The notes under the pieces were generated by a model. It did no database searches. It was not told where the DNA came from and saw only the letters and a list, made by a program, of their open reading frames with translations. 39,612 bases of DNA, taken from IMG/VR virus record IMGVR_UViG_3300022897_000007, positions 1 to 39,612 of that record; one strand, 5' to 3'. Below, piece by piece: positions 13,964 through 26,853 of this stretch; the stretch's first letter is position 1, and every line of letters begins with the position of its first letter. A program made the position numbers and the translations under genes. The stretch is from a virus. Lineage: Duplodnaviria > Caudoviricetes.

Positions 13964-14473
13964 TCAGCTCTGTCGCTGCTGGTCCTGATCGTGGTCCCGC
14001 AGCCGCGCCGCCAGCTCAGCCTTCGTGCCGGTGGTCGACAGGCCACGCTTGGACGCCTCGCCCCGCAACGTCTCGCCGGTCCAGCTGGGACCGTCGTACG
14101 TCTCCGGGTCGTCGTCGCTGCCCTCGGGTTGGGGAGCGTCTGCGACGGCACGCTCCCCAACCCGGGCCTCGTCGGCCAACACCGGCCGGTTGCCGGTGCC
14201 TCGCCCAGCCGACTCGTCCTCATCGCCGGCCTCGTCGTCGGGTCGGCGGATCACATCCTGCGATGGGTTGTCCAGGCTCCGGAACCGCTCACCCTCCTCA
14301 CCCGGCCGCGCATGCGGCAACCCCGCCGTGTCATCGTCGGGCAGCATGCCGTCCTCACGCGCTTGCTGCACCCGCGCCGAACGGTCACCACCATCACCCG
14401 ACTGCAGCTTCGGCGTACCGGGCGGGTCCTCGGGGAACGACGCCCCCTGCTTCGTGATCTTCGGACTTGCCAT
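13964..14473 (-). CDS. Acidic disordered protein with C-terminal SAP/HeH motif
   Basis: WTGETLRGEASKRGLSTTGTKAELAARL = SAP-like; GAGGAG RBS. Confidence 0.7.
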   Translation of the reverse strand: MASPKITKQGASFPEDPPGTPKLQSGDGGDRSARVQQAREDGMLPDDDTAGLPHARPGEEGERFRSLDNPSQDVIRRPDDEAGDEDESAGRGTGNRPVLADEARVGERAVADAPQPEGSDDDPETYDGPSWTGETLRGEASKRGLSTTGTKAELAARLRDHDQDQQRQS

Positions 14474-14972: not shown

Positions 14973-15185
14973 TCAGATAACCCGTGTGGGCGCATACAGC
15001 TCGACGACATCCCAGGACGAAGCCGCCAGGGAGTTGGTACTGGTGATCTCGCCGTTGTCGTCGACTGTCACCGCGCCTACGTCCAGTCCGGTCAGCCCCA
15101 CGAATCCCAGAACCGGGTATTCCTGGTTGTTGGTGAACTGCCCATTCGTCGACCCGGTGTAACGGACCTTCCCTGCAGCGCTCAT
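14973..15185 (-). CDS. Small hypothetical (head region)
   Basis: 70 aa; TGATG coupling to upstream gene. Confidence 0.6.
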   Translation of the reverse strand: MSAAGKVRYTGSTNGQFTNNQEYPVLGFVGLTGLDVGAVTVDDNGEITSTNSLAASSWDVVELYAPTRVI

Positions 15186-15595
15186 CAGACCAGCGCCGGC
15201 AGGTTCGCTGGGTCGCGCATGACATGCAGGTCCCGCAGGATCGCGGTCACCGTGCCCGCGCCAGTCGACGTCAGCTTCACCCGCGAATACCCCGCGGACA
15301 ACTCCGGCGCATCGACCTCAATGCACACCACGTCCTGGCTACCAGTGGTCGTGACAACCGCTCCGGCGGCCTGGGTCACCTTCACCCACGCCGCGCCCGG
15401 CGTGGCCTGGACGTAGTAGCGGGTGATCGTGGCCAGCACCTGGTCACCGCTGCCGTCCGCTTTTTCCTCGGTCAACGTCCAGATATCGCCGGCCGCGTTG
15501 AACCCGATGAACGTGACACCGCCTGCGTTGTGCAGCGGAACGTACACGTCGTCCGCGTTGGCGAGCACGTTGATCGATCGGCCTAGTGCTTCCAT
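15185..15595 (-). CDS. Probable capsid decoration protein
   Basis: First full-length gene after capsid; beta-rich; GAGAGG RBS. Confidence 0.55.
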   Translation of the reverse strand: MEALGRSINVLANADDVYVPLHNAGGVTFIGFNAAGDIWTLTEEKADGSGDQVLATITRYYVQATPGAAWVKVTQAAGAVVTTTGSQDVVCIEVDAPELSAGYSRVKLTSTGAGTVTAILRDLHVMRDPANLPALV

Positions 15596-15611
15596 GTCGT
15601 ACCTCTCACTG

Positions 15612-15667
15612 TCGGGGTGTTAATGCCGAACCGGACCTACCCGGGCCGGGGGCGTTACTGCCCGGCC
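15612..15667 (-). promoter_or_regulatory. Two tandem RNA hairpins with near-identical 10-nt loops
   Basis: mRNA sense GGCCGGG-CAGUAACGCC-CCCGGCC and UCGG-CAUUAACACC-CCGA, just upstream of the RBS of 15185-15595. Confidence 0.5.
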
Positions 15668-15681
15668 ACGGGGCGGTACGT

Positions 15682-15753
15682 CTAACGCTGACGCAGCTGG
15701 GTGCACAGACAGTTAGCCCAGTCGCATTTCACTGTGCAGTGATCCGGCTTCAT
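15682..15753 (-). CDS. Cys4 micropeptide B, 23 aa (MKPDHCTVKCDWANCLCTQLRQR)
   Basis: ATG overlaps capsid TGA (ATGA); paralogous to 22711-22779. Confidence 0.7.
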   Translation of the reverse strand: MKPDHCTVKCDWANCLCTQLRQR

Positions 15754-17099
15754 GCGCGGGTCGCCAACTGCACGAACGGCGAGAGGTTCGCCGAGCCGTT
15801 GTGCGGCGTGATCGCCGACTCCAACCACGGACGCCCGTCGTTCCGCGCGATCAACCGGTACGTGGTCTTGTCGCTGGTGAACTTCACGTGCTCCGAGCTC
15901 GCGGCCGTCATCATCTGCCGGTCACCGATCAGGTACATGGAGAAGTCCACGAACGACAGGTCACCCTGCGTACCCAACGCGGCCGGTGCCCGCTCCGTCA
16001 TGATCACCGGGCGGCCCAGCAGCGTCAGCACCGGCGCGCCGTGCGCGTCGACCAACCACACCGCAGACCCGCCGGTACCGACCTCCAGCGCCATCGTCGC
16101 CAGCTCCACGAACACATCCGGCGACGCCAGCCACACGGCGGTGGCCAGCGAGGACGGCAGCATCCGCGCGTACATCCGGATGACGTTCTGCCACAGCACC
16201 GTGCTGGCGATCTGACCGGTTTCCTTCGCGACCGTGATGATCGCCGTGTTCGTCGACGCCAACGCACCCAGCGGCTCACCCACACCCGTGCCGAGCAGGA
16301 AGTCCAGATCCTCGTAGTAGGCCATGGCCTCGGGGAAGGTCTGCTCGATGAACCCGCCGAACGCCGGAGCGTCCTTCACCAGCTCGTTGGGGACGTGCGC
16401 CAGCGCGGTCTGCTTGGTCGCCTCCAGCTTCAGCGACCCGAACGCGGCCTGGGACTCGACCAGCTCTTCGCCCTCTTCGGTGCGGTAGACCACGATGCCG
16501 CCGTACACCGAGGACACCCGGCTGGTCTCGTCGATCTTCGGGAACCGCAACGTCGCGCTGGACATCGGGATCACCCGCGCCCTCGGCCGGACGATCGCCG
16601 CACCCAGCGACGCGATCAGCAGCTCGGCCCGGAACTCCTCCGGCACCAAGAACCCGCCTTCCGACGGGATCTTCTCCGAGTAGTCCTTGACCCGCTGCAG
16701 CTTCTCCGCGGCGTCGCCCTTGAGGTTCGCCTTGTTCCAGATGGTCTGCAGGTACGCGGCGATGTTCGGGAACTCGCCGTTGAGCACTGCGCCCGGCGCG
16801 TCGGGGTTGGGCTGGTGGCGGCGGGCGGCCCGGTTCTGCTGGACGGGCTCGGTGTAGTTCAGGTTGACCTTGGACTTTTTCGAGTCCATCCCGTTGGCTT
16901 CCATCATCTCGTGGAAGATCAACTGGGTCTGCTCGCGGATCTGCGCCGCGATCCCCGGGTCCTTCTCGTGCATCGTCTTGGCGTACGCCTTGATCAGCCG
17001 CGCCAACCCGCCCTCTTCGGCATACGCCGCCTTGACCTTGGTGTCATCGGCGAGGAAGTCCTCGAGGTCCGCCGGGCTTTCCGGGATTGTGACAGTCAT
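15750..17099 (-). CDS. Major capsid protein, HK97 fold
   Basis: SEGGFLVPEE, GTGVGEPLG, TLLGRPV, FVDFSMY, RNDGRPW motifs; N-terminal delta-like extension. Confidence 0.95.
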   Translation of the reverse strand: MTVTIPESPADLEDFLADDTKVKAAYAEEGGLARLIKAYAKTMHEKDPGIAAQIREQTQLIFHEMMEANGMDSKKSKVNLNYTEPVQQNRAARRHQPNPDAPGAVLNGEFPNIAAYLQTIWNKANLKGDAAEKLQRVKDYSEKIPSEGGFLVPEEFRAELLIASLGAAIVRPRARVIPMSSATLRFPKIDETSRVSSVYGGIVVYRTEEGEELVESQAAFGSLKLEATKQTALAHVPNELVKDAPAFGGFIEQTFPEAMAYYEDLDFLLGTGVGEPLGALASTNTAIITVAKETGQIASTVLWQNVIRMYARMLPSSLATAVWLASPDVFVELATMALEVGTGGSAVWLVDAHGAPVLTLLGRPVIMTERAPAALGTQGDLSFVDFSMYLIGDRQMMTAASSEHVKFTSDKTTYRLIARNDGRPWLESAITPHNGSANLSPFVQLATRA

Positions 17100-17911
17100 C
17101 AGGTCCGTGCCTCCTTCAGTGCCCTACGGAATACGTCAGGGTCAAACGCCGCCTCTACTGGCGGGGGCTTGTCTGCCATGGCGTCGGTGATCGAACCGGC
17201 GAACGGCTCCCCGACGGGAATAATCTTGGCTGCTGGCTTGGGGGCGTTGGCGTAGACCGACAGGTCCCACGCCGCGAACGCCATCTGCTCCTCAGCCGGA
17301 GCAGGCGTCGGCGCGGCATCGGTCACCGCGTCCGCCAAACCAGCAGCCACGACCTCAGCGCCACCGACGTACCAGGTCTCCGCCCGCATCAACGCGCGCC
17401 ACTCGTCCGGCTCACCACCAGCCTTGACCGCGTACATCCCGGCCATGTTCTGCGACGTGCGGTCGAGCAGGTCCGCGTACTTGTGCAGCACCTCAGCGTT
17501 GCCCTGCTCGAAACCCCACCCATCGTGGATCATGACCTGGGCGTTCGGCGCGACCTCGACCCGGTTGCCCGCAGCCATGATCACACTGGCGGCGGACGCG
17601 GCCACGCCCTCGACCACCATCGTCACCAGCCCAGCGTGCGCCCGGAAGTTGTTGTAGATCGCGATCGCCTCGAACACATCCCCCCCAGGCGAGTTGACGT
17701 GCACCGTGACCGGGCCGTCCCCGATGGCCTGCAGGGCTTGCACGATCTCCGCCGCGGAGATCCCCCAGAACCCGCCGTAGGGGTCGATCACGTCGTACAG
17801 CCAGATCTCGCCGCCGCCCGCTGTGGACACGTCCGCGCGCAGCCGGGACGCACGCGGCGCCACCCCAGCCGCGAGAGCCTGCATCCGTAGTTGCCGCCAG
17901 TGGTGCGTCAC
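17099..17911 (-). CDS. ClpP-like (S14) prohead protease
   Basis: VNSPGGDVFEA, AASAASVI (Ser), MIHDG (His), AETWY motifs. Confidence 0.92.
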   Translation of the reverse strand: MTHHWRQLRMQALAAGVAPRASRLRADVSTAGGGEIWLYDVIDPYGGFWGISAAEIVQALQAIGDGPVTVHVNSPGGDVFEAIAIYNNFRAHAGLVTMVVEGVAASAASVIMAAGNRVEVAPNAQVMIHDGWGFEQGNAEVLHKYADLLDRTSQNMAGMYAVKAGGEPDEWRALMRAETWYVGGAEVVAAGLADAVTDAAPTPAPAEEQMAFAAWDLSVYANAPKPAAKIIPVGEPFAGSITDAMADKPPPVEAAFDPDVFRRALKEART

Positions 17912-18168
17912 TGCCCACCACCAGCCGAGCTACGGGGGATCTGGGTGTGGTTCTCCCGCTGCCACTCGATCACCTGCCGGCAGGTCAGTTCCAGACCCTG
18001 AATGTGTTCGGGCGGGCTGCCGTGCGCGTCACACATCTGCGCATACACACCCAACACTTCGGGCAGCAGCTGGTCCTGAGCACGGAAGACCACGACCGGC
18101 TCATCCTCGCCGATCGTGCCGTGCTCAACGGTCACCCGGCCGTACTTGCGATCAAGCCCCATCGCCAT
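17908..18168 (-). CDS. Hypothetical phage protein
   Basis: DEPVVVFRAQD motif; overlaps both neighbours. Confidence 0.7.
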   Translation of the reverse strand: MAMGLDRKYGRVTVEHGTIGEDEPVVVFRAQDQLLPEVLGVYAQMCDAHGSPPEHIQGLELTCRQVIEWQRENHTQIPRSSAGGGQ

Positions 18169-20566
18169 CCCCTTCCGTATCCCAGATAGCTACGACCGTG
18201 CCCCGGCACCGCTCCCCGCCGAGGCAGTCCTTGAACCCGCCACGCGGATAGTCCTCTTTGGACGCCTCAAGCGTGGCGTACATCTTGCCCTCGACCTTGC
18301 GGCACTTCGTACAAGTGTTGCTGTCCAACACTTCCGACGCGAAATATGTTGCTGTCGGTGCCGCGTCCAAAGTGGCCAGACGGCCAGCGTTCTGCGCCGC
18401 CGTCACCGCACCACCCAACGCCTGCGCAGGCTGCGCATCAGTCAAGCTGTCCAGGTGCTCACGCACACCCGCCGCGACCGCCGCCGCGTCCGTGTTGCTA
18501 CCGGCCAGCCGCAACGCCGCCGCCCCCGCCGACACCGCCAACGCCGCACGCATCAACCCGGTGGTGACCTGCGCCTGCGTCTCCAGATCGGCCTTGTCCG
18601 GCACGACCTTGTCGACCTTCACGCCCTGCTCTTTGGCCTCACGCACCACCGCGGCCGCGCCCGTCGCAGCGACCGCGACCAGACCAGCCGTGAGTGCCGC
18701 CGCCGCCCCACCATCCGGCGTGATCAACTCCAGCAGCGCGTCCAGATCCCCCGCCGCGATCGCGTCCTGCACCTGCTTCGCAAGACCCGCGTACTGCTTG
18801 TCCAGGATGCCCGGCCACTTCGCCAACAGCTTGTCCAGCGCGGCCTGCCAGTCCTCACCCAGCTGGGTCAGATCCACATCATCCGCCGGGGACGCGGCCC
18901 GCACCGTCGGGGTGGCCCGGCCGGCCGGCTGTGGATCCGTGCTGGCCGGGCCGTCGTTCCCCGCCCCCGGGGAAGTGGGTGGGGGTGGCGGCACCGGATC
19001 CACCTTTGTTCCCGGTGCCGCCTCGGGGGCTTCCGGATCATCACCGTCGGGGGGTACGGGTGACGCCGGCCGCGGTTCCGCATCCTGCCACGCGTTCACG
19101 TCGATGTCCGCTCCAGCGTCGACCAGGATCTGCCGGCCCTCGATCGGGGTAAGCAGGCTGTTGCCCTTGACCGAGAGGTACAGCTTCTGTGCCGTGGCCG
19201 CGACCGCGGCCGGGTCGCCTTTCTTCGTTTCGTCCAGCTCACCGGTCGCAGGCTTGGCCGGCTCGGCAGCCTTGTCATCCTGCTGCTCGTCGTCGTCATC
19301 GGGCTCAGCGGGCTCGGCCGGCTGCTCGACGACCACGATCCGGGTCAGCTTCGGCAAGCCGACGAACGCGCACGCCTCGTCCCAATCCACCCCGGACGCC
19401 GCCAACGCGTTCGCGTCCTCGATCTTCGCCTTACGCTCCGCCCGATCATCCGCCTTATCCGACGGCACCGGGTTCTCATAACACAGTTTCACCGTCTTAC
19501 CCGGCGGCCCGAACAACTCCCGATACGGCCCGTTCGCCAGCTCCGCCCACTCCTCCAGATTCGGAACCAATTCATCCTTCGCGAACGTAGAATCCGCCGC
19601 ATACGCATTCGCCAAATTCACGTTATCGCTAATACCCATTTTATGCTTGTGAATACGGAACCCTTCCAGCACCGCATCACGCGTCAAACCACGGATCTCA
19701 GCGAACTGCATATCCTTCATGTTGAACTGGCGCTGAACGAACTTCCCGTACTCCAGGATCGCGATCCTGTGCGCCTTGTTCACACCCCGGTGCTGCTCGT
19801 TCCACCGCTTCCGCAACCGGTTGTATTCCATGTCCGGCAAGCCAGTAGGGATTTCCAGGATCCCTCCCGGGGAGGCGTCGTTGTCGAAGAACCGCGCGAT
19901 CCACTGCTCACTGGTGAGCGACACACCCAGCGTCGTCCCCAGCGTCTGCACCACACCCAGGCCACGATGCGGGTCCATCGGATGCGGGAACGTCATCCGC
20001 ATCACCTCGGCCAGCTCCAGCGGGATCTTCGTCCCGTCCGGCGCCACATAGATGTAGCCGACCAGGAAGTCATCCGGATCCGGCACCGGCCACATCCGGT
20101 CCGGACGCACCGGCCACCACGCCCGCGGCGTACCCACCCCCGGCTTGCCGAGGAAGTCCATCACCGCCCACGCCTCACCCACCGCGCGGTAGTGCCACGT
20201 CATCATGGTCCGGGCGAACTTGCCCGTCATGAACTTGTTCGGCTTCTGCCACAGCTTCACCGCCAGCGACTGCTCACCGGTCACCCGGGGTGCGTCGCTG
20301 TCCGGAGTGGGGTTGATCTGCTCCCGCTCGCCGTACCACTTCACCGCGGCGGTGCTGCCCGCGATCAGCTGCAGCACGGAGAACAGGGTGGATTCGCCGG
20401 TGGTGAGCTTGAGCTGTGACTCTTTCCCCGACGCGCCGAACAGGCGGTTACCGACCGAGTGCCGTTCGGCTTCGTAGGTGTAGGGGACCGGGGGTCCAGA
20501 GTCACCGCCACCGGCGGGGGAGGTGGCGGCGTAGCAGTCGACCAGGTCACCCAGCAGCGTCATCAA
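18152..20566 (-). CDS. Portal protein fused to MuF-like head morphogenesis domain
   Basis: KPNKFM, PVRPDRM, FFDNDASPGG, KDMQF HK97-type portal motifs; C-terminal SEVLDSNTCTKC..CLGGERCRG MuF-like motif. Confidence 0.88.
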   Translation of the reverse strand: MMTLLGDLVDCYAATSPAGGGDSGPPVPYTYEAERHSVGNRLFGASGKESQLKLTTGESTLFSVLQLIAGSTAAVKWYGEREQINPTPDSDAPRVTGEQSLAVKLWQKPNKFMTGKFARTMMTWHYRAVGEAWAVMDFLGKPGVGTPRAWWPVRPDRMWPVPDPDDFLVGYIYVAPDGTKIPLELAEVMRMTFPHPMDPHRGLGVVQTLGTTLGVSLTSEQWIARFFDNDASPGGILEIPTGLPDMEYNRLRKRWNEQHRGVNKAHRIAILEYGKFVQRQFNMKDMQFAEIRGLTRDAVLEGFRIHKHKMGISDNVNLANAYAADSTFAKDELVPNLEEWAELANGPYRELFGPPGKTVKLCYENPVPSDKADDRAERKAKIEDANALAASGVDWDEACAFVGLPKLTRIVVVEQPAEPAEPDDDDEQQDDKAAEPAKPATGELDETKKGDPAAVAATAQKLYLSVKGNSLLTPIEGRQILVDAGADIDVNAWQDAEPRPASPVPPDGDDPEAPEAAPGTKVDPVPPPPPTSPGAGNDGPASTDPQPAGRATPTVRAASPADDVDLTQLGEDWQAALDKLLAKWPGILDKQYAGLAKQVQDAIAAGDLDALLELITPDGGAAAALTAGLVAVAATGAAAVVREAKEQGVKVDKVVPDKADLETQAQVTTGLMRAALAVSAGAAALRLAGSNTDAAAVAAGVREHLDSLTDAQPAQALGGAVTAAQNAGRLATLDAAPTATYFASEVLDSNTCTKCRKVEGKMYATLEASKEDYPRGGFKDCLGGERCRGTVVAIWDTEGDGDGA

Positions 20567-20820
20567 CCACCGGCCTGCGGGCGCATGGTGCCCTGACCGA
20601 AGGTCGGAAACGAGGGACGGACGGAGACGATCACAGGGTCAGGATCCGGCACGCCGGTCGTGACCCGGTTCAAGACACGCGCAGCAGTTTCGTCACTGAC
20701 GCCTTCCGCGCGCATCGCGGTCACGAACTCGTGGGTCGCGGACTGCAGGGTGTCGAGCATCTGCTTGCGGATCCACGCGACAGTGTCGGCTGGTGCGGCG
20801 GCCGGGTCCGGGCCGGTCAT
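20563..20820 (-). CDS. Hypothetical protein
   Basis: ATG at 20820 overlaps upstream stop; stop overlaps portal start. Confidence 0.6.
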   Translation of the reverse strand: MTGPDPAAAPADTVAWIRKQMLDTLQSATHEFVTAMRAEGVSDETAARVLNRVTTGVPDPDPVIVSVRPSFPTFGQGTMRPQAGG

Positions 20821-21137
20821 CGCTCGGCCGCGCGTTCCGCCGCCCGGCGCTTCGCCGTCCACAACACCTTGAACTCCACCACCGGCACCGACAGACCGGC
20901 CGCGATCCACCCCGCCCACACCTCGACCTGGAACACGCCGTAGGTGATCAGGCCACACATGACCAGCGTGCCGAACACCTCGGCAAGCACCAGGCTTGCC
21001 CGTGCCAGCACGCCCGGCCCTCGGGGGACCGGGCGGCCGGCGGCACGGGCGCGCGCCTCACGGGCCTCACGACGCTCGGCACGCGACCCAAAGACAGATT
21101 CCACCAAAGACTCCGGTTGTCGGGGAATTGCCACCAC
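20817..21137 (-). CDS. Small membrane protein between terminase and portal
   Basis: Two hydrophobic segments; GTG after GAGGGG RBS. Confidence 0.6.
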   Translation of the reverse strand: MVAIPRQPESLVESVFGSRAERREAREARARAAGRPVPRGPGVLARASLVLAEVFGTLVMCGLITYGVFQVEVWAGWIAAGLSVPVVEFKVLWTAKRRAAERAAER

Positions 21138-21139
21138 GA

Positions 21140-22714
21140 TTACCCCTCCAACCACAAGTCACGATCACGGAACCGGACACCCAGGTCCCTATCAGCCACA
21201 AGATACCTCACGCAATCGGCCCCGTGATCATCCACTTTCAACGGCGATTCCTTCTCAGCCTTACCATCGGCCGCCGGCTCCCACACGTAACCACCGAATT
21301 CCTCAGCCGTGCACTGCGGCTTACCCGCCGCCTTCAACGACTCATCCCGCTCCACCAACGAATCCGGCAAAAGCACCAGACCCGGCCGGCCGTTCCCGGC
21401 CACCTCCAACCGCGCCTCGACCGCCTGAATCCCCTCGGTCACCGTCTTCCTAGCGGCAGTCGTGCCCATGCCGAGATGCGCCGTCAGGGTCGCGCGGCCT
21501 TCTGCATCGTGGTCGCAGATGATCGCCTGCGGCTGCGGCTCCGTCCACACCAACAGACCCTGCTCCAGCGCGTCGGCTGGCTTCTCCCGCGTGAACGCCA
21601 CCTGCTCCCGGGTCAGCTTCAACCCCGGCCCGATCCGCGTCACCAGCTTCAAGATCTGCCGAGCGTGATCCTCGACCAGCCGCTTGGTGTGGTAGATCTC
21701 CCGGTACAGGACCAGCTGCCCGTCCGGGTCCTGCGCCCACCACTGGCACACGAACGGATTCTTGTACCCGAAGTCGACCACCCAGAACCGCGGCCACTCA
21801 GCCGGGATCTTCTTCGGCCGCTTGTCCGGGATGTGCACCGCCGGATCCCAGTTGTCATAGACCAGCCCATCCGCCGCGGTCCACAGCCCATGCCTGAGGC
21901 GCTGCTTGCGGACACCGGTCAGGTTGTCCAGGCGGCCGAGGTACGACACCCCAGCTTCGGTGATCCGATACAGGCGGCCTTCGTGCTCCTCGACCACACC
22001 CGGCTGCAGGTCGGTCGAGCCGGTGGCCGGGCCGAGGTCTTCGAAGTAGCGGGGGTTCTCCCAATGCTGTGCATACAGAATGCTGGTCAAGCCCTCATCG
22101 CAGCGCTGCTTCAACCAATGCGTCGGCCGATCCGGGTTGCAATCCGCGATGATCTGCTGAAACGACACCGCCCCGTTACGCAGACGGCTGGTGAGGAACT
22201 CCCAGTCCTTCGGGACCAGCTCCGTCGCCTCACCCACATACACCAGGTCGACCTCGGCACCCATGACCTTGGTGACGTTGTCCAGCCCGGTCAGGAAGAT
22301 CTTGGAGCCGTTCGCGAACCGGTACTGCTCCGGCTCGCTACCGGACCCGCCGTAGTAGACGCACAGGCCGCCCGCGATGGCCTCGACTGCGACGTGCTCA
22401 CGCCACGTCTGCAACGTCGTCGACGTCAACGACTTGTGGGTCTTGCGCGCGATCAGGCCCACGAACGGCCGGTGCTCGACCACCTTCCCCGCGCTGTCGC
22501 GCACTGGCCCGCCGTCGGCCGCGGTGCGGACCTTCCCGTTCAGCAGCGCCATCAGCAGCAGCTTCTCGAGACAGGCCCGGGTCTTGCCGGGGCCGGCCGG
22601 GCCGGACACGAGGACTTCGTTGTCGCGGCAGTTGAACAGGCGCAGGGCGCTGCCGCGGGGTGTGTATTCGTGCCGGAGTTCGTCCTGCTCGGCTGGCGCG
22701 ACGGTGACGGTCAT
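21140..22714 (-). CDS. terL: Terminase large subunit (PBSX-like)
   Basis: Walker A GPAGPGKT, Walker B-like VYVGEATE, DCNP, VDFGYKNP nuclease motif, DDHGADCVRY. Confidence 0.93.
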   Translation of the reverse strand: MTVTVAPAEQDELRHEYTPRGSALRLFNCRDNEVLVSGPAGPGKTRACLEKLLLMALLNGKVRTAADGGPVRDSAGKVVEHRPFVGLIARKTHKSLTSTTLQTWREHVAVEAIAGGLCVYYGGSGSEPEQYRFANGSKIFLTGLDNVTKVMGAEVDLVYVGEATELVPKDWEFLTSRLRNGAVSFQQIIADCNPDRPTHWLKQRCDEGLTSILYAQHWENPRYFEDLGPATGSTDLQPGVVEEHEGRLYRITEAGVSYLGRLDNLTGVRKQRLRHGLWTAADGLVYDNWDPAVHIPDKRPKKIPAEWPRFWVVDFGYKNPFVCQWWAQDPDGQLVLYREIYHTKRLVEDHARQILKLVTRIGPGLKLTREQVAFTREKPADALEQGLLVWTEPQPQAIICDHDAEGRATLTAHLGMGTTAARKTVTEGIQAVEARLEVAGNGRPGLVLLPDSLVERDESLKAAGKPQCTAEEFGGYVWEPAADGKAEKESPLKVDDHGADCVRYLVADRDLGVRFRDRDLWLEG

Positions 22715-22779
22715 CGCAGCTGTTTGCAGAGGCAGTTGGTCCAGTCACAGTCCACTGTGCACTCTTTGTCGCTCATCAT
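22711..22779 (-). CDS. Cys4 micropeptide A, 22 aa (MMSDKECTVDCDWTNCLCKQLR)
   Basis: ATGA overlaps at both ends (upstream gene stop; TerL start); AAGGA RBS; paralogous to 15682-15753. Confidence 0.75.
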   Translation of the reverse strand: MMSDKECTVDCDWTNCLCKQLR

Positions 22780-23147
22780 TGATCCTTGTCGTCGTGCTCG
22801 GCCGGGTCCGGTCGGGCGATGCTGATCTCCGCGCCGTTGTCCACGATGATCGCCTTGTGCTCGGGGAACACCCGCTCGAGCCGGGCGAGGAACCTGTCTT
22901 GGTCTCTCTCGTTGCCGGCGTCTCTGACCTGGACGACGATGACGTCGCCGGGTTGGAGGCGCATGATCCGCACCGACTCGAACCCCGGCTCATCCGGTTC
23001 GCACATGTGCGCAGTCCCCACCAGAACGCCCGTGCCGCACTTGCACCGCTCGTACAACGGCCCATCCACGTCGCGCGGGTCGGTGCCGCTGCCGCGTTGC
23101 AGCCGGATCGGTGGCTGCTGACGTGGGCTGATCATTCCGTCAGGCAT
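22776..23147 (-). CDS. Hypothetical protein
   Basis: CKCG..HMC plus LQPGDVIVV domain; coupled at both ends. Confidence 0.6.
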   Translation of the reverse strand: MPDGMISPRQQPPIRLQRGSGTDPRDVDGPLYERCKCGTGVLVGTAHMCEPDEPGFESVRIMRLQPGDVIVVQVRDAGNERDQDRFLARLERVFPEHKAIIVDNGAEISIARPDPAEHDDKDQ

Positions 23148-23440
23148 CAGATGAACTCCGTTCCAGTCGCCTCAACCCACGCAATCGAGTCCTGCCCATA
23201 CCCATCCCGCAGCAGAGCCAACGCAGCCTTGAGCGTGTGCGGTGTCTCGGTCGCGATGGCGATGCACGCGTTCTGGTATGAGGAGCTGGGCTCGGACACC
23301 CAGTCGCCGTACACCTCGCTGGCCGCTTTCGCCATGCACTCGCGGAAGCTGTGCAGGTAGTTCGACCATGCGGCTTGGGTGAGCTTGTCGTCGCTGTTGC
23401 CGATCGACGCATAGACCACGGTCAGCTGTTTGTCAGGCAT
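23147..23440 (-). CDS. Hypothetical phage protein
   Basis: VYASIGNSDDKLTQ..QNAC..QDSIAW; GGGAG RBS. Confidence 0.7.
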   Translation of the reverse strand: MPDKQLTVVYASIGNSDDKLTQAAWSNYLHSFRECMAKAASEVYGDWVSEPSSSYQNACIAIATETPHTLKAALALLRDGYGQDSIAWVEATGTEFI

Positions 23441-23774
23441 TCGTCATCTCCCTGATCATCACTCTGGCTGGCGCCATCCCGCAGTCGTCCAGCACGCACC
23501 GGTTCTCCGGCAGGCCCAGCCACACCGACCCCGGCCAGCCACACACCGCCTCATGCTCGTGCTCACGCAGCACGGTGCCTGACGCGCGCGCGATCGGCTC
23601 GTGCTCGGCACAGGTCGCCACACTGACCGTGCCGTAGTGGCCGGGGTCCTGGATCATCAGGTGCCGGACAGCTGGCTTGGTGCAGCGCGGGTCGGCGGGT
23701 GACCGGCCGTGGAACAGGCAGCCGCCGTCTGAGGCGTGCATCGGGTCGGCCTCGGCACCGATGTGCGGCCTCAC
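23433..23774 (-). CDS. Cys/His-rich hypothetical protein
   Basis: GTGA overlap at 23771-23774; several C/H ligands. Confidence 0.6.
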   Translation of the reverse strand: MRPHIGAEADPMHASDGGCLFHGRSPADPRCTKPAVRHLMIQDPGHYGTVSVATCAEHEPIARASGTVLREHEHEAVCGWPGSVWLGLPENRCVLDDCGMAPARVMIREMTNA

Positions 23775-24061
23775 GACAGGTTCCCGAGGTCGTGGCACAG
23801 CGTGTCCGGGATCCGGTACTGCCAGATGACCTCGGCACTCGCGCTGCTCCCCACACGGCCCACCCTGGTCACCTCAGGGCCACGCTCCAGCACGTTCAGG
23901 CTGTGGATGGGTTCCTGAGGTCCCAGCGGGTCGCCGATCATCCTGAGTCGAGCGTCGACCTCTGTGGTGGTCATCGGGCGGCAAGCAGCCTTGAGCACGG
24001 CGAGGATGGCTTGTCTGGCGAGCTGGGCGCGTTTCTCCGGTGGTCGTCCGTAGGTGGTCAT
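23771..24061 (-). CDS. Putative winged-HTH protein ending in DLGNLS
   Basis: AILAVLKAACRPMTTTEV..SLNVLER..VTRVG..IWQY wHTH-like pattern; ATGA start. Confidence 0.55.
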   Translation of the reverse strand: MTTYGRPPEKRAQLARQAILAVLKAACRPMTTTEVDARLRMIGDPLGPQEPIHSLNVLERGPEVTRVGRVGSSASAEVIWQYRIPDTLCHDLGNLS

Positions 24062-24333
24062 GAGAGGTTCCCGAGGTCGACGCCGCCCACCATCGCTCGC
24101 AACCGCGTGAGCGTGGCCGAGTCCAGCCGCTCCACTTGCCGGCCGTACTTCCGCGGCGCAGGATGCGGCAGCGTGCCCCGGTTCCTGGCCAGGCCGCAAC
24201 AACCAGCGCACATGCCATATGACGCGCGCCGGACATACCTCTGCTCGCGCAGGGTGGCGAACCGCTTGTACGCCTCGTACTGCACGGTGAGACGGCCGCA
24301 GTCGATACACGGAATGATCACCACCCTCATCAC
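24058..24333 (-). CDS. Zn-finger protein ending in GVDLGNLS
   Basis: CIDC and CAGC pairs; basic composition. Confidence 0.6.
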   Translation of the reverse strand: MMRVVIIPCIDCGRLTVQYEAYKRFATLREQRYVRRASYGMCAGCCGLARNRGTLPHPAPRKYGRQVERLDSATLTRLRAMVGGVDLGNLS

Positions 24334-24554
24334 GCACCGCCCTTAGCCAGTTCGTGCGCGGCCCAAGACAGCGCATCAGCCACCAGCGCCACCTGCCGGA
24401 GCTTCTCCGCAGGCATCCAGTCGATCGCGGCCACGGCCTGGTCCAGATCGGCCTGAAGCAGGTAACCGATGGCGCCTTGTGCGTGCCGGATGATCCCGGC
24501 CTGTTCACCACCGCCGCGCAGTCGGCGAATGGCATCCGCGTGTGGGTTCGTCAT
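24330..24554 (-). CDS. Hypothetical protein
   Basis: ATGA overlap with TerS stop; GTGA overlap downstream. Confidence 0.6.
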   Translation of the reverse strand: MTNPHADAIRRLRGGGEQAGIIRHAQGAIGYLLQADLDQAVAAIDWMPAEKLRQVALVADALSWAAHELAKGGA

Positions 24555-25027
24555 GACAGGTTCCCCAAGTCCACGCCGTTCACCTGGTAGGTGATCTGGC
24601 CGTTCACCGTCACCTGAGCTGGCGCGTTCGTCCCGTTCAGCTTGGCCTGCGCCTCGATCGTCGCCCGCAGATCCCGCAACGCCTGCATCTCAGGGCCGGA
24701 GTCCCGCAACGGCTGGCCTTCTGTGTCGCGCACGATCTCGCCGCCGGAGATCGTGACGTGATCCCGGTCCGCGATCTCCTCCAGCCGCGCGAGGACCATC
24801 TCCAGCCGCGCGTTCTGCTGGGCACGCATCTCGGATACGGCCAGCTGAGGAGCCGCGGCGACCGTCTTCCAGTACATGGTGTGCGCGTTCTGTTTGGTGA
24901 TACCGAAATGCTCGCCTATCTCGGCGTAGGTTTTCCCGGATTCTTTGAGGCGAACGATCTCGGCGTTGCGTTCAGCGAGTTGTGATGGCGTCAAGCGGTC
25001 TTGGGTCAACGCGTCGTCGGTGGTCAT
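24551..25027 (-). CDS. terS: Terminase small subunit (HTH type)
   Basis: N-terminal HTH (GKTYAEIGEHFGIT), helical middle, AKLNGTNAP, C-terminal ITYQVNGVD strand; first large gene upstream of TerL. Confidence 0.75.
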   Translation of the reverse strand: MTTDDALTQDRLTPSQLAERNAEIVRLKESGKTYAEIGEHFGITKQNAHTMYWKTVAAAPQLAVSEMRAQQNARLEMVLARLEEIADRDHVTISGGEIVRDTEGQPLRDSGPEMQALRDLRATIEAQAKLNGTNAPAQVTVNGQITYQVNGVDLGNLS

Positions 25028-25139
25028 GGCCCCTCGCTGGTGTGTCTACGGGTGGTGTGACTTTGCAGTTTCGCCAGTCGCCGTATCCGGCTTGGCGCCA
25101 GATTTCGGCTGCGCTGGTGAGTTTCAGTGTGTGGGTCAT
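24972..25139 (-). CDS. Possible 55-aa ORF upstream of TerS
   Basis: Strong GAGGGGAG RBS before ATG 25139 (MTHTLKLTSAAEIWRQ...), but overlaps TerS start by 56 nt. Confidence 0.35.
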   Translation of the reverse strand: MTHTLKLTSAAEIWRQAGYGDWRNCKVTPPVDTPARGHDHRRRVDPRPLDAITTR

Positions 25140-25189
25140 GGGCTCCCCTCGTGTGTGACTGTGTGTAGTGGTTGTGGGTGGTGGTGGTG

Positions 25190-25356
25190 GGTTTGTGACA
25201 GGGGATAGTTACAGGTGACGCCGTGTCTGTAACTGGGTAACTACTGTCACTTCTGTCACTAAGGGTCACTGTCTGTTATACCCTGTCACCGTACGTTAGA
25301 GTTAGTTACATAATTACAGTTGTTACATATAAAATGTCTCCAGAGAGCTGTAACTA
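25190..25356. other. Putative replication origin (iterons plus AT-rich segment)
   Basis: Dense GTGACA/TGTCAC/GTTACA/TGTAAC hexamers in both orientations; very AT-rich tract ~25295-25340; directly after helicase. Confidence 0.65.
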
Positions 25357-26853
25357 AGGGGCGTCACTTTCATCCGGTGGCAGTGTGTAGTTGCCGCGCA
25401 GGGGTGAGGTCAGCTGACCACGGTCTGTCATGCGGCGCAGGAACTGCCGCACCGTGCCCGGCTTCACGTCGTCCAGTTCATCGGTGATGGCCTTCACCGG
25501 CACCAGGCCGTTCTGCTGTGTCACAAACTCGAGGATCCGCTCGACCACCTCGCTGTTGGCCTTGGCCGGCCGCTTGGGTTCCATCACCGACGCGATCGAG
25601 CGGGTGTCTTCTCCGTCCCACACCACCCGGCTGGTGGTGATCGAGTCCAGGACGCCGGGCTGGTCGGACTCGACCTCGATCGTGACCTGGATGATCCGGT
25701 AGGCCATCGAGGGCTGTTTGGGGCCGAGGTTGGACTTGACGTGCCCGAACAGGTACCGGTCTTCGTGTTCGTCCTCGGGGTCGACGATGCAGTACAGGAC
25801 GCTGCGCGCGACGGCGGTGAACGCGCGGGAGGCCATGATGGAGTTGAGCGGGTCGTGGCCGCCGGACTTGTTCACGTGGATCAGGCCGAGCACGGACACG
25901 CCGGTGGTGGAGCAGAACTGGGCCAGCGGGTCCAGGACGGTCCGAACCTCTTTGTCCTTGTGGGTGTCCACCCCGCCCGGGATCACCGACATGAGCGGGT
26001 CGAGCACGATCAGCGCGATGTCGTGGGTCACGCACAGGGTCGTGAGCCGGTCGAGGTCGCCGGGCACGCTCATGGTGGTCGAGTAGCCCTCGACCGTCCG
26101 CGCGTCGATCTGGAACACCCGCGACCGATCCGCTCCGGCCGCGTGCAGGCGGGGAAGGATGACCTCTTCCCAGGCGTCCTCGGTGGCCACGATCCCGACC
26201 CCGCGCGGACTGCCGTAATACTCTCCCGCCAGCCGCCCGGTGGTGAGCTCACCGATGATGTCGTAGCTGGTGGTGGACTTCCCGATGCCCTCCCGGCCGG
26301 TCAGGAGAGTAATAGCGCCCAGCGGGATCCGCAGGTGCATCAGCCACCGCGCGGCGCGCATGGGGCGGCCGGCGGCGGTGATGGCGTGCAGGGCACGGCC
26401 GTTGGTGGGGCGTTCGCCCTGCATCGCGGCGGCGAACACGGCCAGCTCGTTCTGCAGCGCGAGCAGCCGCGAGTCGCTGGGCTCGGCACCGGCGAGCTGG
26501 GTGAGGCGTTGCCCGGCCTGCATCATCCGACGCCCGTTCGCCGCCTGCAGCACCCGATCGGCCGAGGCTTCGGCCATGGCGCCGGTGATGCCGTAGGAGA
26601 ACAGCTTCAGCAGGTACGGCCCGGCGTCGGGGTAGCCGAGGCGTTCCAGCTCGTCGCGGACGGTGTCGGGGTTGATCTGCTGGCCACGTGAGTGCAGGGT
26701 CAGGATCGCGGCGTGCACGCGCTGTTTCGGGCCGGGCTGGAAGTCGTCGGTGGCCAGCCTGCGGGCGGCGGTGACACCGTCGGGTCCGTTGAGCGCGGCC
26801 GAGAGTACGAACTCTTCGGCGTTGACGTCCTCGGGGGGCAGGGTCGTGGTCAT
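25354..26853 (-). CDS. Replicative helicase/RepA-like ATPase (DnaB-N-like, AAA_25, C-terminal wHTH)
   Basis: PPEDVNAEEFVLSA DnaB-N-like start; GREGIGKST Walker A; LIVLDPL Walker B; HVNKS, KSNLGP; ATGA start. Confidence 0.85.
   Translation of the reverse strand: MTTTLPPEDVNAEEFVLSAALNGPDGVTAARRLATDDFQPGPKQRVHAAILTLHSRGQQINPDTVRDELERLGYPDAGPYLLKLFSYGITGAMAEASADRVLQAANGRRMMQAGQRLTQLAGAEPSDSRLLALQNELAVFAAAMQGERPTNGRALHAITAAGRPMRAARWLMHLRIPLGAITLLTGREGIGKSTTSYDIIGELTTGRLAGEYYGSPRGVGIVATEDAWEEVILPRLHAAGADRSRVFQIDARTVEGYSTTMSVPGDLDRLTTLCVTHDIALIVLDPLMSVIPGGVDTHKDKEVRTVLDPLAQFCSTTGVSVLGLIHVNKSGGHDPLNSIMASRAFTAVARSVLYCIVDPEDEHEDRYLFGHVKSNLGPKQPSMAYRIIQVTIEVESDQPGVLDSITTSRVVWDGEDTRSIASVMEPKRPAKANSEVVERILEFVTQQNGLVPVKAITDELDDVKPGTVRQFLRRMTDRGQLTSPLRGNYTLPPDESDAP

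Follow-up and report, generated by a model that had tools for sequence, protein, structure and literature searches.

A virus record of 39,612 nt from IMG/VR (IMGVR_UViG_3300022897_000007, Caudoviricetes; hereafter the window) carries, on the minus strand of its head gene operon, two very short open reading frames (ORFs) with four cysteines each. The first, pepA or copy A (22711..22779, minus strand, 22 aa, MMSDKECTVDCDWTNCLCKQLR), lies directly upstream of the gene for the terminase large subunit (TerL; 21140..22714, minus strand), and the second, pepB or copy B (15682..15753, minus strand, 23 aa, MKPDHCTVKCDWANCLCTQLRQR), directly follows the major capsid protein gene (15750..17099, minus strand). 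Judged by their sequences, pepA and pepB probably encode paralogous, optional accessory microproteins, putative metal-bound beta-hairpins that would act in trans. The members of this microprotein family fall below the length that standard gene callers handle, and the family is missing from every library searched. The size of the two peptides suits peptide synthesis, so that metal binding, structure and effects on the host are directly testable.

Both ORFs had been proposed in an initial annotation of the window, and their translations agree exactly with the peptides given there. The C-x3-C-x4-C-x-C pattern is matched solely by copies A and B in the six frames of the window, and a self-comparison with blastn pairs the two copies (38/47 nt, E 6e-5). 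In the 16-residue core, 13 residues are identical on recounting. The corresponding 48 nt contain 10 differences, seven of them at codon position 3, two at position 1, and one at position 2, and the four codon changes reported earlier (TGT/TGC, TGC/TGT, CTC/CTG, and CGA/CGT) are indeed purely synonymous. Nonsynonymous and synonymous divergence of the core pair, calculated by NG86, were 0.13 (dN) and 0.99 (dS), that is, a dN/dS ratio of about 0.13. The third-position bias and this ratio corroborate the earlier claim that the peptide is better conserved than the DNA. When 10 random substitutions were introduced, at least 13 identities were retained in merely 0.2–0.5% of 200,000 draws. The remaining five frames of the core pair yield 6–9 identities out of 15, and the 30-nt flanks of the two copies are identical at 8/30 and 13/30 positions. 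The GC content at third codon positions is 0.77 and 0.70 in the two copies, the codon score peaks in the ORF frame, as it does for neighbouring small genes, and a codon-usage gene caller trained on the large genes of the phage tiles both copies into the operon. An RNA fold conserved in place of the codons had been named as a finding that would speak against translation; neither copy folds better than shuffled sequences (z +0.8 and +0.7). By these measures, copies A and B are predicted peptide-coding paralogs under purifying selection.

A third family member was found in sequencing run X6, which belongs to a separate study (P6). An 85-nt contig from this run matches 34/37 nt of the copy B core, and its translation by hand yields M-S-N-N-E in frame before the first cysteine and K-Q-L-K-stop after the last. 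The register is exactly that of copy A, with ATGA at either end, and the flanking codons differ from those of copy A by synonymous changes. The downstream start, M-T-I-T-E, resembles the TerL start, M-T-V-T-V. This contig is independent support for a putative translated family and for the occupation of site A in more than one lineage. With three sequences, the family is rare. Another run, X8, does not cover the ORF and carries no information on its presence.

Parts of the region are contained in 11 public sequencing runs; no RNA run is listed among them, a blank that says nothing about expression. One of the 11, X1, may be the source of the record and was set aside, and the contigs of runs X2, X3, X4, and X5 were compared with the window over 15000-24000. 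The comparison with X2 and X5 delimits two swappable cassettes on the minus strand. Cassette A (22714..22805) consists of the last ~10 codons of a 123-aa ORF plus pepA, and cassette B (15668..15749) extends from the capsid stop to the first of the tandem RNA hairpins. An X2 contig that is ~95% identical to the window (186 other letters in 3,624) spans TerL and then carries 541 other bases in place of 22714-22805, and a joint in X5 likewise omits this stretch. At site B, 87 other bases replace 15668-15749 in an X5 contig, at a different joint. A second X2 contig covers copy B with no listed difference within the ORF; seven listed differences fall in the capsid tail, and three unlisted ones cannot be placed. 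The 30 letters of the X5 insert beside the capsid stop (30/87 bases) read, by hand, as a new ORF that begins with M-T-A-S-E-C-G-K-E-S-C. Thus, a different cysteine-containing mini-ORF appears to fill site B in X5. A search of IMG/VR with the motif of this insert returned one locus, a chance match, and no true one. Because close strains swap both cassettes, pepA and pepB are best described as optional passengers at insertion slots, and for the same reason the "mobile mini-cassette" is, among the options raised in the initial annotation, the one that fits best. Both copies vary between conserved genes in close relatives, with exact junctions, as accessory genes do, and their product bears the marks of selection, in the dN of 0.13 against a dS of 0.99 and in a third member that keeps frame, start, and stop.

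Other small cysteine-rich ORFs occupy equivalent positions in related genomes. L032 (8889-9020) and L042 (3020-3115) carry related ORFs of 31-43 aa adjoining TerL, with the pattern C-x2-C-x3-H-x2-C...W-C-D-C-x-H, for which no Pfam, PHROG, or NCBIfam match was found. They form a second, unnamed putative family of mini metal fingers, and since Cys/His-rich mini-ORFs are found there, the slots at TerL seem to attract small metal-finger-like genes. Inserts with C-x3-C-x-C-x2-H repeats are present after the capsid stop in L026 and before TerL in L028; we take these to be possibly homing-endonuclease-like. The stop/start overlaps beside TerL and the capsid gene thus look like swappable slots for tiny cysteine-rich genes in actinophage-like viruses, which annotation misses.

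The junctions themselves are as first reported. Copy A has ATGA overlaps at both ends, its start overlapping the stop of the 123-aa ORF and its stop overlapping the TerL start; the start of copy B overlaps the capsid stop, again as ATGA; and TerL has no evident Shine-Dalgarno (SD) motif of its own. Copy A has a possible SD motif (AAGGA) 6 nt before the second ATG. From the likely terminase small subunit (TerS) gene to copy B, 12 of the 15 junctions are 1- or 4-nt stop/start overlaps, and the remaining three comprise overlaps of 8 and 17 nt and one pair of genes that nearly abut. A search for same-strand promoter-like sites in 15400-25600, confined to the sigma-70 consensus, found none. The head module has 52 distinct relatives, 46 of which could be assessed at the TerL start. 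In 40 of the 46, a candidate TerL start overlaps a stop, and in 32 of those 40 the upstream frame has at least 50 codons, by a lenient test that may admit chance overlaps; the other six have no overlap. The gene upstream of TerL is TerS in some relatives and an unrelated insert in others. Since TerL overlaps unrelated upstream frames in relatives, its coupling is the default geometry of the operon and not a sensor. Copy A would bridge to TerL as any insert at the same site would. At the capsid stop, an unrelated coupled ORF is present in one of 44 distinct relatives (L037) and in Streptomyces phage Dagobah. The same ATGA/TGATG overlaps as at pepA and pepB are found in gene pairs translated by termination-reinitiation, and in 13 of 14 tested pairs coupling was strict (PMC6728339). 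As such overlaps usually mean tight coupling, pepA and pepB would therefore be translated by reinitiation. This process accounts for their translation, not for the role of the peptide.

In the AlphaFold2 model of a 31-residue version, two strands, C-T-V-D-C and C-L-C-K-Q, are joined by a D-W-T-N turn, and strand alternation would put all four cysteines on one face of the hairpin. In the reducing cytoplasm, a single metal site is likelier than disulfides. The conservation of residues other than the ligands suggests a binding surface. Neither copy A nor copy B contains the two C(P)XCG motifs of known zinc-finger microproteins. A precursor of a ribosomally synthesised and post-translationally modified peptide is disfavoured, as none of the phage ORFs scanned with Pfam (50 + 30) belongs to a radical SAM family, a lanthionine family, or another family of modifying enzymes, a test that leaves room for a host enzyme acting in trans.

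We propose that ribosomes ending the upstream gene would reinitiate at the ATGA overlap, so that, late in infection, copy B would be made near the level of the capsid protein and copy A at that of the terminase. The resulting peptide of 21-23 residues would fold as a beta-hairpin in which the four cysteines hold one metal ion, likely zinc, and the microprotein would have its target in trans, in a protein of the host or of a competitor. At site A, pepA would in addition keep the reinitiation chain to TerL unbroken, as is required of any inserted ORF. A role in trans is the simplest one, given that heads are built without the peptide and that it adjoins two different genes. A plausible target class, and the likeliest, would be host interaction, for example counter-defence, an assignment for which PADLOC returned no match. 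For the accessory genes of enterobacteriophages, antagonism towards host defences or towards other viruses is given as the likely role of most (10.1101/2023.04.06.535777, Silas et al.). As a more speculative and rather unlikely extension, the metal-stapled hairpin might be a shield, co-produced with terminase and capsid, against host sensors of both. The idea stems from the fact that terminase and capsid are known immune triggers, sensed by Avs2 and Avs7, respectively (PMC13601566). If it is true, the shield would be a very small anti-defence protein with a new, minimal counter-defence design, and the overlaps of the head operon would be slots that dose inhibitors to match immune triggers.

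Several points weigh against the reading of pepA and pepB as metal-bound accessory microproteins. The coding statistics derive from one short pair of 16 codons. The X6 contig is short (85 nt), has a depth of only 4, and shows nothing of its genomic surroundings, and the letters at the three core positions where it differs are not spelled out. The ATG of the X5 insert presumes an intact capsid stop junction, and one difference near the end of the piece is unlisted. The AlphaFold2 model has a mean pLDDT of 68 and a pTM of 0.23 and includes nine upstream residues; metal geometry is beyond AlphaFold2 prediction, and among 14 microproteins predicted to be of the Cys4 type, 5 failed to bind zinc (PMC11241148). 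Furthermore, the analysis singles out no particular target.

Among the alternatives, the ORFs could be near-neutral hitch-hikers, mini-cassettes that are kept for coupling and spread by recombination at the overlaps while the peptide does little. Their patchy presence, the acceptance of unrelated inserts at both sites, and the threefold occurrence of the TerS 3' end in the insert chain, a sign of repeat-aided gene accretion, are in line with this. However, a spacer needs only an open frame, and yet the Cys, Trp, Asp, Asn, and Gln-Leu residues are kept, with synonymous changes, across the two copies, and flanking residues are also kept in the X6 member; on balance, this explanation is unlikely. 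Location in the head operon, with coupling to TerL and to the capsid gene, would also suit a minor cofactor of the virion or of packaging, in the form of a hairpin stapled by metal or disulfides and bound to capsid, portal, or terminase; the cross-strand cysteines predicted by the model could gain disulfides after lysis. Such a cofactor was among the initial suggestions. That it should be needed is disfavoured because near-identical strains do without the peptide: copy A is missing from strains ~95% identical to the window, no copy is present in any of the 46 TerL and 44 capsid relatives assessed, and one and the same peptide adjoins two different genes. We consider a cofactor role quite unlikely. 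A late metal or thiol buffer resembling a miniature metallothionein, which would chelate Zn or Cu and thereby protect assembly or starve host metalloenzymes without any protein partner, would make sense of the high cysteine fraction (4/22), of the capsid-like level that copy B would reach, and of the further cysteine-rich inserts at the same sites. But with four cysteines, the peptide could bind roughly one ion at the most, and no profile of a metallothionein matches it; the conservation of T, V, D, W, N, L, Q, L, and R, none of them a ligand, suggests a binding surface, which makes a mere buffer improbable.

The initial annotation had considered a metal- or redox-responsive coupling leader for TerL, and a cis-acting leader tuning TerL translation in response to cysteine, metal, or redox state would be consistent with the overlap of the copy A stop and the TerL start and with the want of an evident SD motif at TerL; short cysteine-rich ORFs that act as attenuators are described in mycobacteria (10.1101/834739). 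A dedicated leader is contradicted by the relatives, in which TerL starts by overlap with any upstream frame, including unrelated ORFs (at least 50 codons in 32/46). Moreover, consecutive Cys codons are absent, the ORF is located mid-operon and is not leaderless, and no competing fold was found. Copy B has no coupled downstream gene, the next start being 87 nt away, and a leader therefore cannot account for it. We regard this explanation as very improbable. Extremely improbable, finally, is that the ORFs are duplicated DNA or RNA elements with no coding role, or that they extend the capsid or the upstream protein by frameshifting. Relative to the upstream gene, both ORFs do occupy the -1 frame, in open stretches of 79 and 92 codons, but the third-position bias, the in-frame conservation, and the missing fold all argue against it, and the last 280 nt of the capsid gene and of the 123-aa ORF contain no slippery heptamer of the type X XXY YYZ.

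Among known systems, the bacterial metallothioneins SmtA and MymT share a C-x4-C-x-C-like local spacing with the peptides. These proteins have ~50 aa, many more Cys/His residues, and multi-metal clusters; pepA and pepB, with 22-23 aa and four cysteines, match no metallothionein profile of Pfam or NCBIfam up to E 10. The one-domain C(P)XCG zinc-finger microproteins of Haloferax, as described in PMC11241148, are likewise very small and have four cysteines as likely metal ligands. In contrast to these, pepA and pepB have the spacing C-x3-C-x4-C-x-C, are much shorter, and are encoded by a phage. The mycobacterial polycysteine attenuators resemble pepA as unannotated, cysteine-rich short ORFs upstream of an operon gene in actinobacteria (10.1101/834739). 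However, pepA and pepB are neither leaderless nor first in the operon, since they start mid-operon inside an upstream stop codon; their cysteines are spaced by x3, x4, and x1, whereas the attenuators are described by at least two consecutive Cys codons; their peptide sequence is conserved; and their downstream genes do not belong to cysteine metabolism. The accessory genes of enterobacteriophages, as characterised by Silas et al., are fast-evolving, uncharacterised, strain-variable small genes, as are pepA and pepB, which differ in having 21-23 codons, in being duplicated, and in their location in the head operon beside TerL and the capsid gene. Dagobah shares the TerL-portal-Clp-capsid gene order with the window, and there, too, the capsid stop is coupled to a small ORF, which has 82 aa and is unrelated.

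Relatives of the family were sought widely. The peptide is absent from all 46 TerL and all 44 capsid relatives, including L274, whose TerL is 79% identical. Scans of IMG/VR with five patterns gave 16, 24, 6, 11, and 19 loci, all of which were translated, and none is a short ORF with the start/stop layout of the peptide; of the 17 loci (6 + 11) checked for other frames, most sit inside a longer one. The scan of JGI metagenomes (57/64 parts) gave 118 loci. Two of these belong to the record of the window itself; translations were made of the remaining 116, of which 17, among the matches listed, were read in six frames. L131 and L197 share 10/12 core residues with copy B and were judged chance matches because they have no start codon and 40% GC surroundings. 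In L146 and L168, a short frame does begin with Met but is without T-V, L, and Q-L, and neither locus was confirmed as a member. In GTDB, the strict pattern had no match. These patterns fix the cysteine spacing, and distant kin could escape them. A profile search, as initially recommended, was run on samples of GTDB genomes, and its control on the window's own genome found copies A and B (two matches, E ≤1e-16); it found no other member in 401 genomes of one phylum or in 401 genomes of one family. In a set of five genomes, the profile gave one weak match (E 0.023), which is preceded by a stop and is due to chance. No match was obtained in 5.8 billion proteins of near or longer lengths or, at E 0.001, in 1.84 billion representative proteins, and these blanks are weak because called genes rarely include ORFs so short. 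There was no usable match in the ESM Atlas, none in Pfam, NCBIfam, PADLOC, or Foldseek, one chance match in a PDB sequence search (E 9.3), and no true match in INPHARED, in PLSDB, or by tblastn and blastn of the peptides in the phage collection. The only PHROGs match, phrog_30786 (E 0.22), is a family absent from 201 genomes and 14 controls. The literature search, which covered little of the subscription journals and no bioRxiv supplements, found no paper on the peptide family. The peptides thus correspond to no known family, structure, or called protein in these databases, and the family, which the initial annotation had not recognised either, is undescribed in the libraries and searches used.

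The window (39.6 kb, 66% GC, 126-nt end repeat, CheckV 88%) is a near-complete actinophage-like genome. Its head and tail operon, on the minus strand, encodes TerL (PHROG 2, E 1e-31; Pfam Terminase_3), portal, Clp protease, the HK97-type capsid protein (PHROG 10, E 6e-37; PF05065), and tape measure. The nearest cultured relatives by TerL are Thermobifida phage P1312 (KT021004.1, 49.5%) and Streptomyces phage Dagobah (MT711977.1, 43%), and the nearest record overall, with 79% identity in TerL, is a contig from a metagenome-assembled genome that bears the label Propionibacteriaceae; the host would accordingly be actinobacterial. The likely TerS gene, with a helix-turn-helix (24551..25027, minus strand), is so labelled by its position. 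In several relatives, TerS homologs end immediately 5' of TerL; in the window, six inserted ORFs and pepA stand between the two. The 123-aa ORF (22776..23147, minus strand), directly upstream of pepA, has no family match and is considered accessory. The likely TerS gene closes (24551-24584, minus strand) with a stretch that encodes D-L-G-N-L-S-stop and has an SD-like GGGAA and an overlapping start; this stretch is repeated along the insert chain, where it ends two of the inserted ORFs (24058-24091 and 23771-23792, minus strand), which suggests gene accretion via a duplicated coupling junction.

Downstream of copy B, just outside cassette B, RNA hairpins in tandem (15612..15667, minus strand) mark the 3' border of the cassette; they belong to the leader of the next gene, and their 10-nt loop is conserved. 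The loop, CA(U/A/G)U(A/C/G)A(A/C)(A/C)CC, is closed by G-C, and the stems of 4-13 bp are free in sequence. Such a hairpin, often in tandem, is present in the window and in 17 of the 44 distinct relatives at no more than 250 nt from the capsid stop, compared with a background of 0.005 per 250 nt; examples are L032:14308-14371, L041:4767-4842, L053:5980-6044, and L112:6341-6404. It stays with the downstream gene despite large intervening inserts (L103, L106, and L107). In a set of 28 copies, picked by hand for their loop motif and position, pairing holds in 93% of cells, and five of six pairs covary. The hairpin has no Rfam match and is likely a protein-binding or processing element.

Three further features of the window were noted. 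An 86-aa ORF in the gap between portal and protease (17908-18168, minus strand) is deleted in the X2, X3, and X4 contigs and is a further optional insert. In the head-tail region, an acidic 169-aa ORF (13964-14473, minus strand) has a C-terminal SAP domain (PF02037). A 53-nt direct repeat (2251-2303 and 2447-2498), 81% identical, lies within a gene of the tail region.

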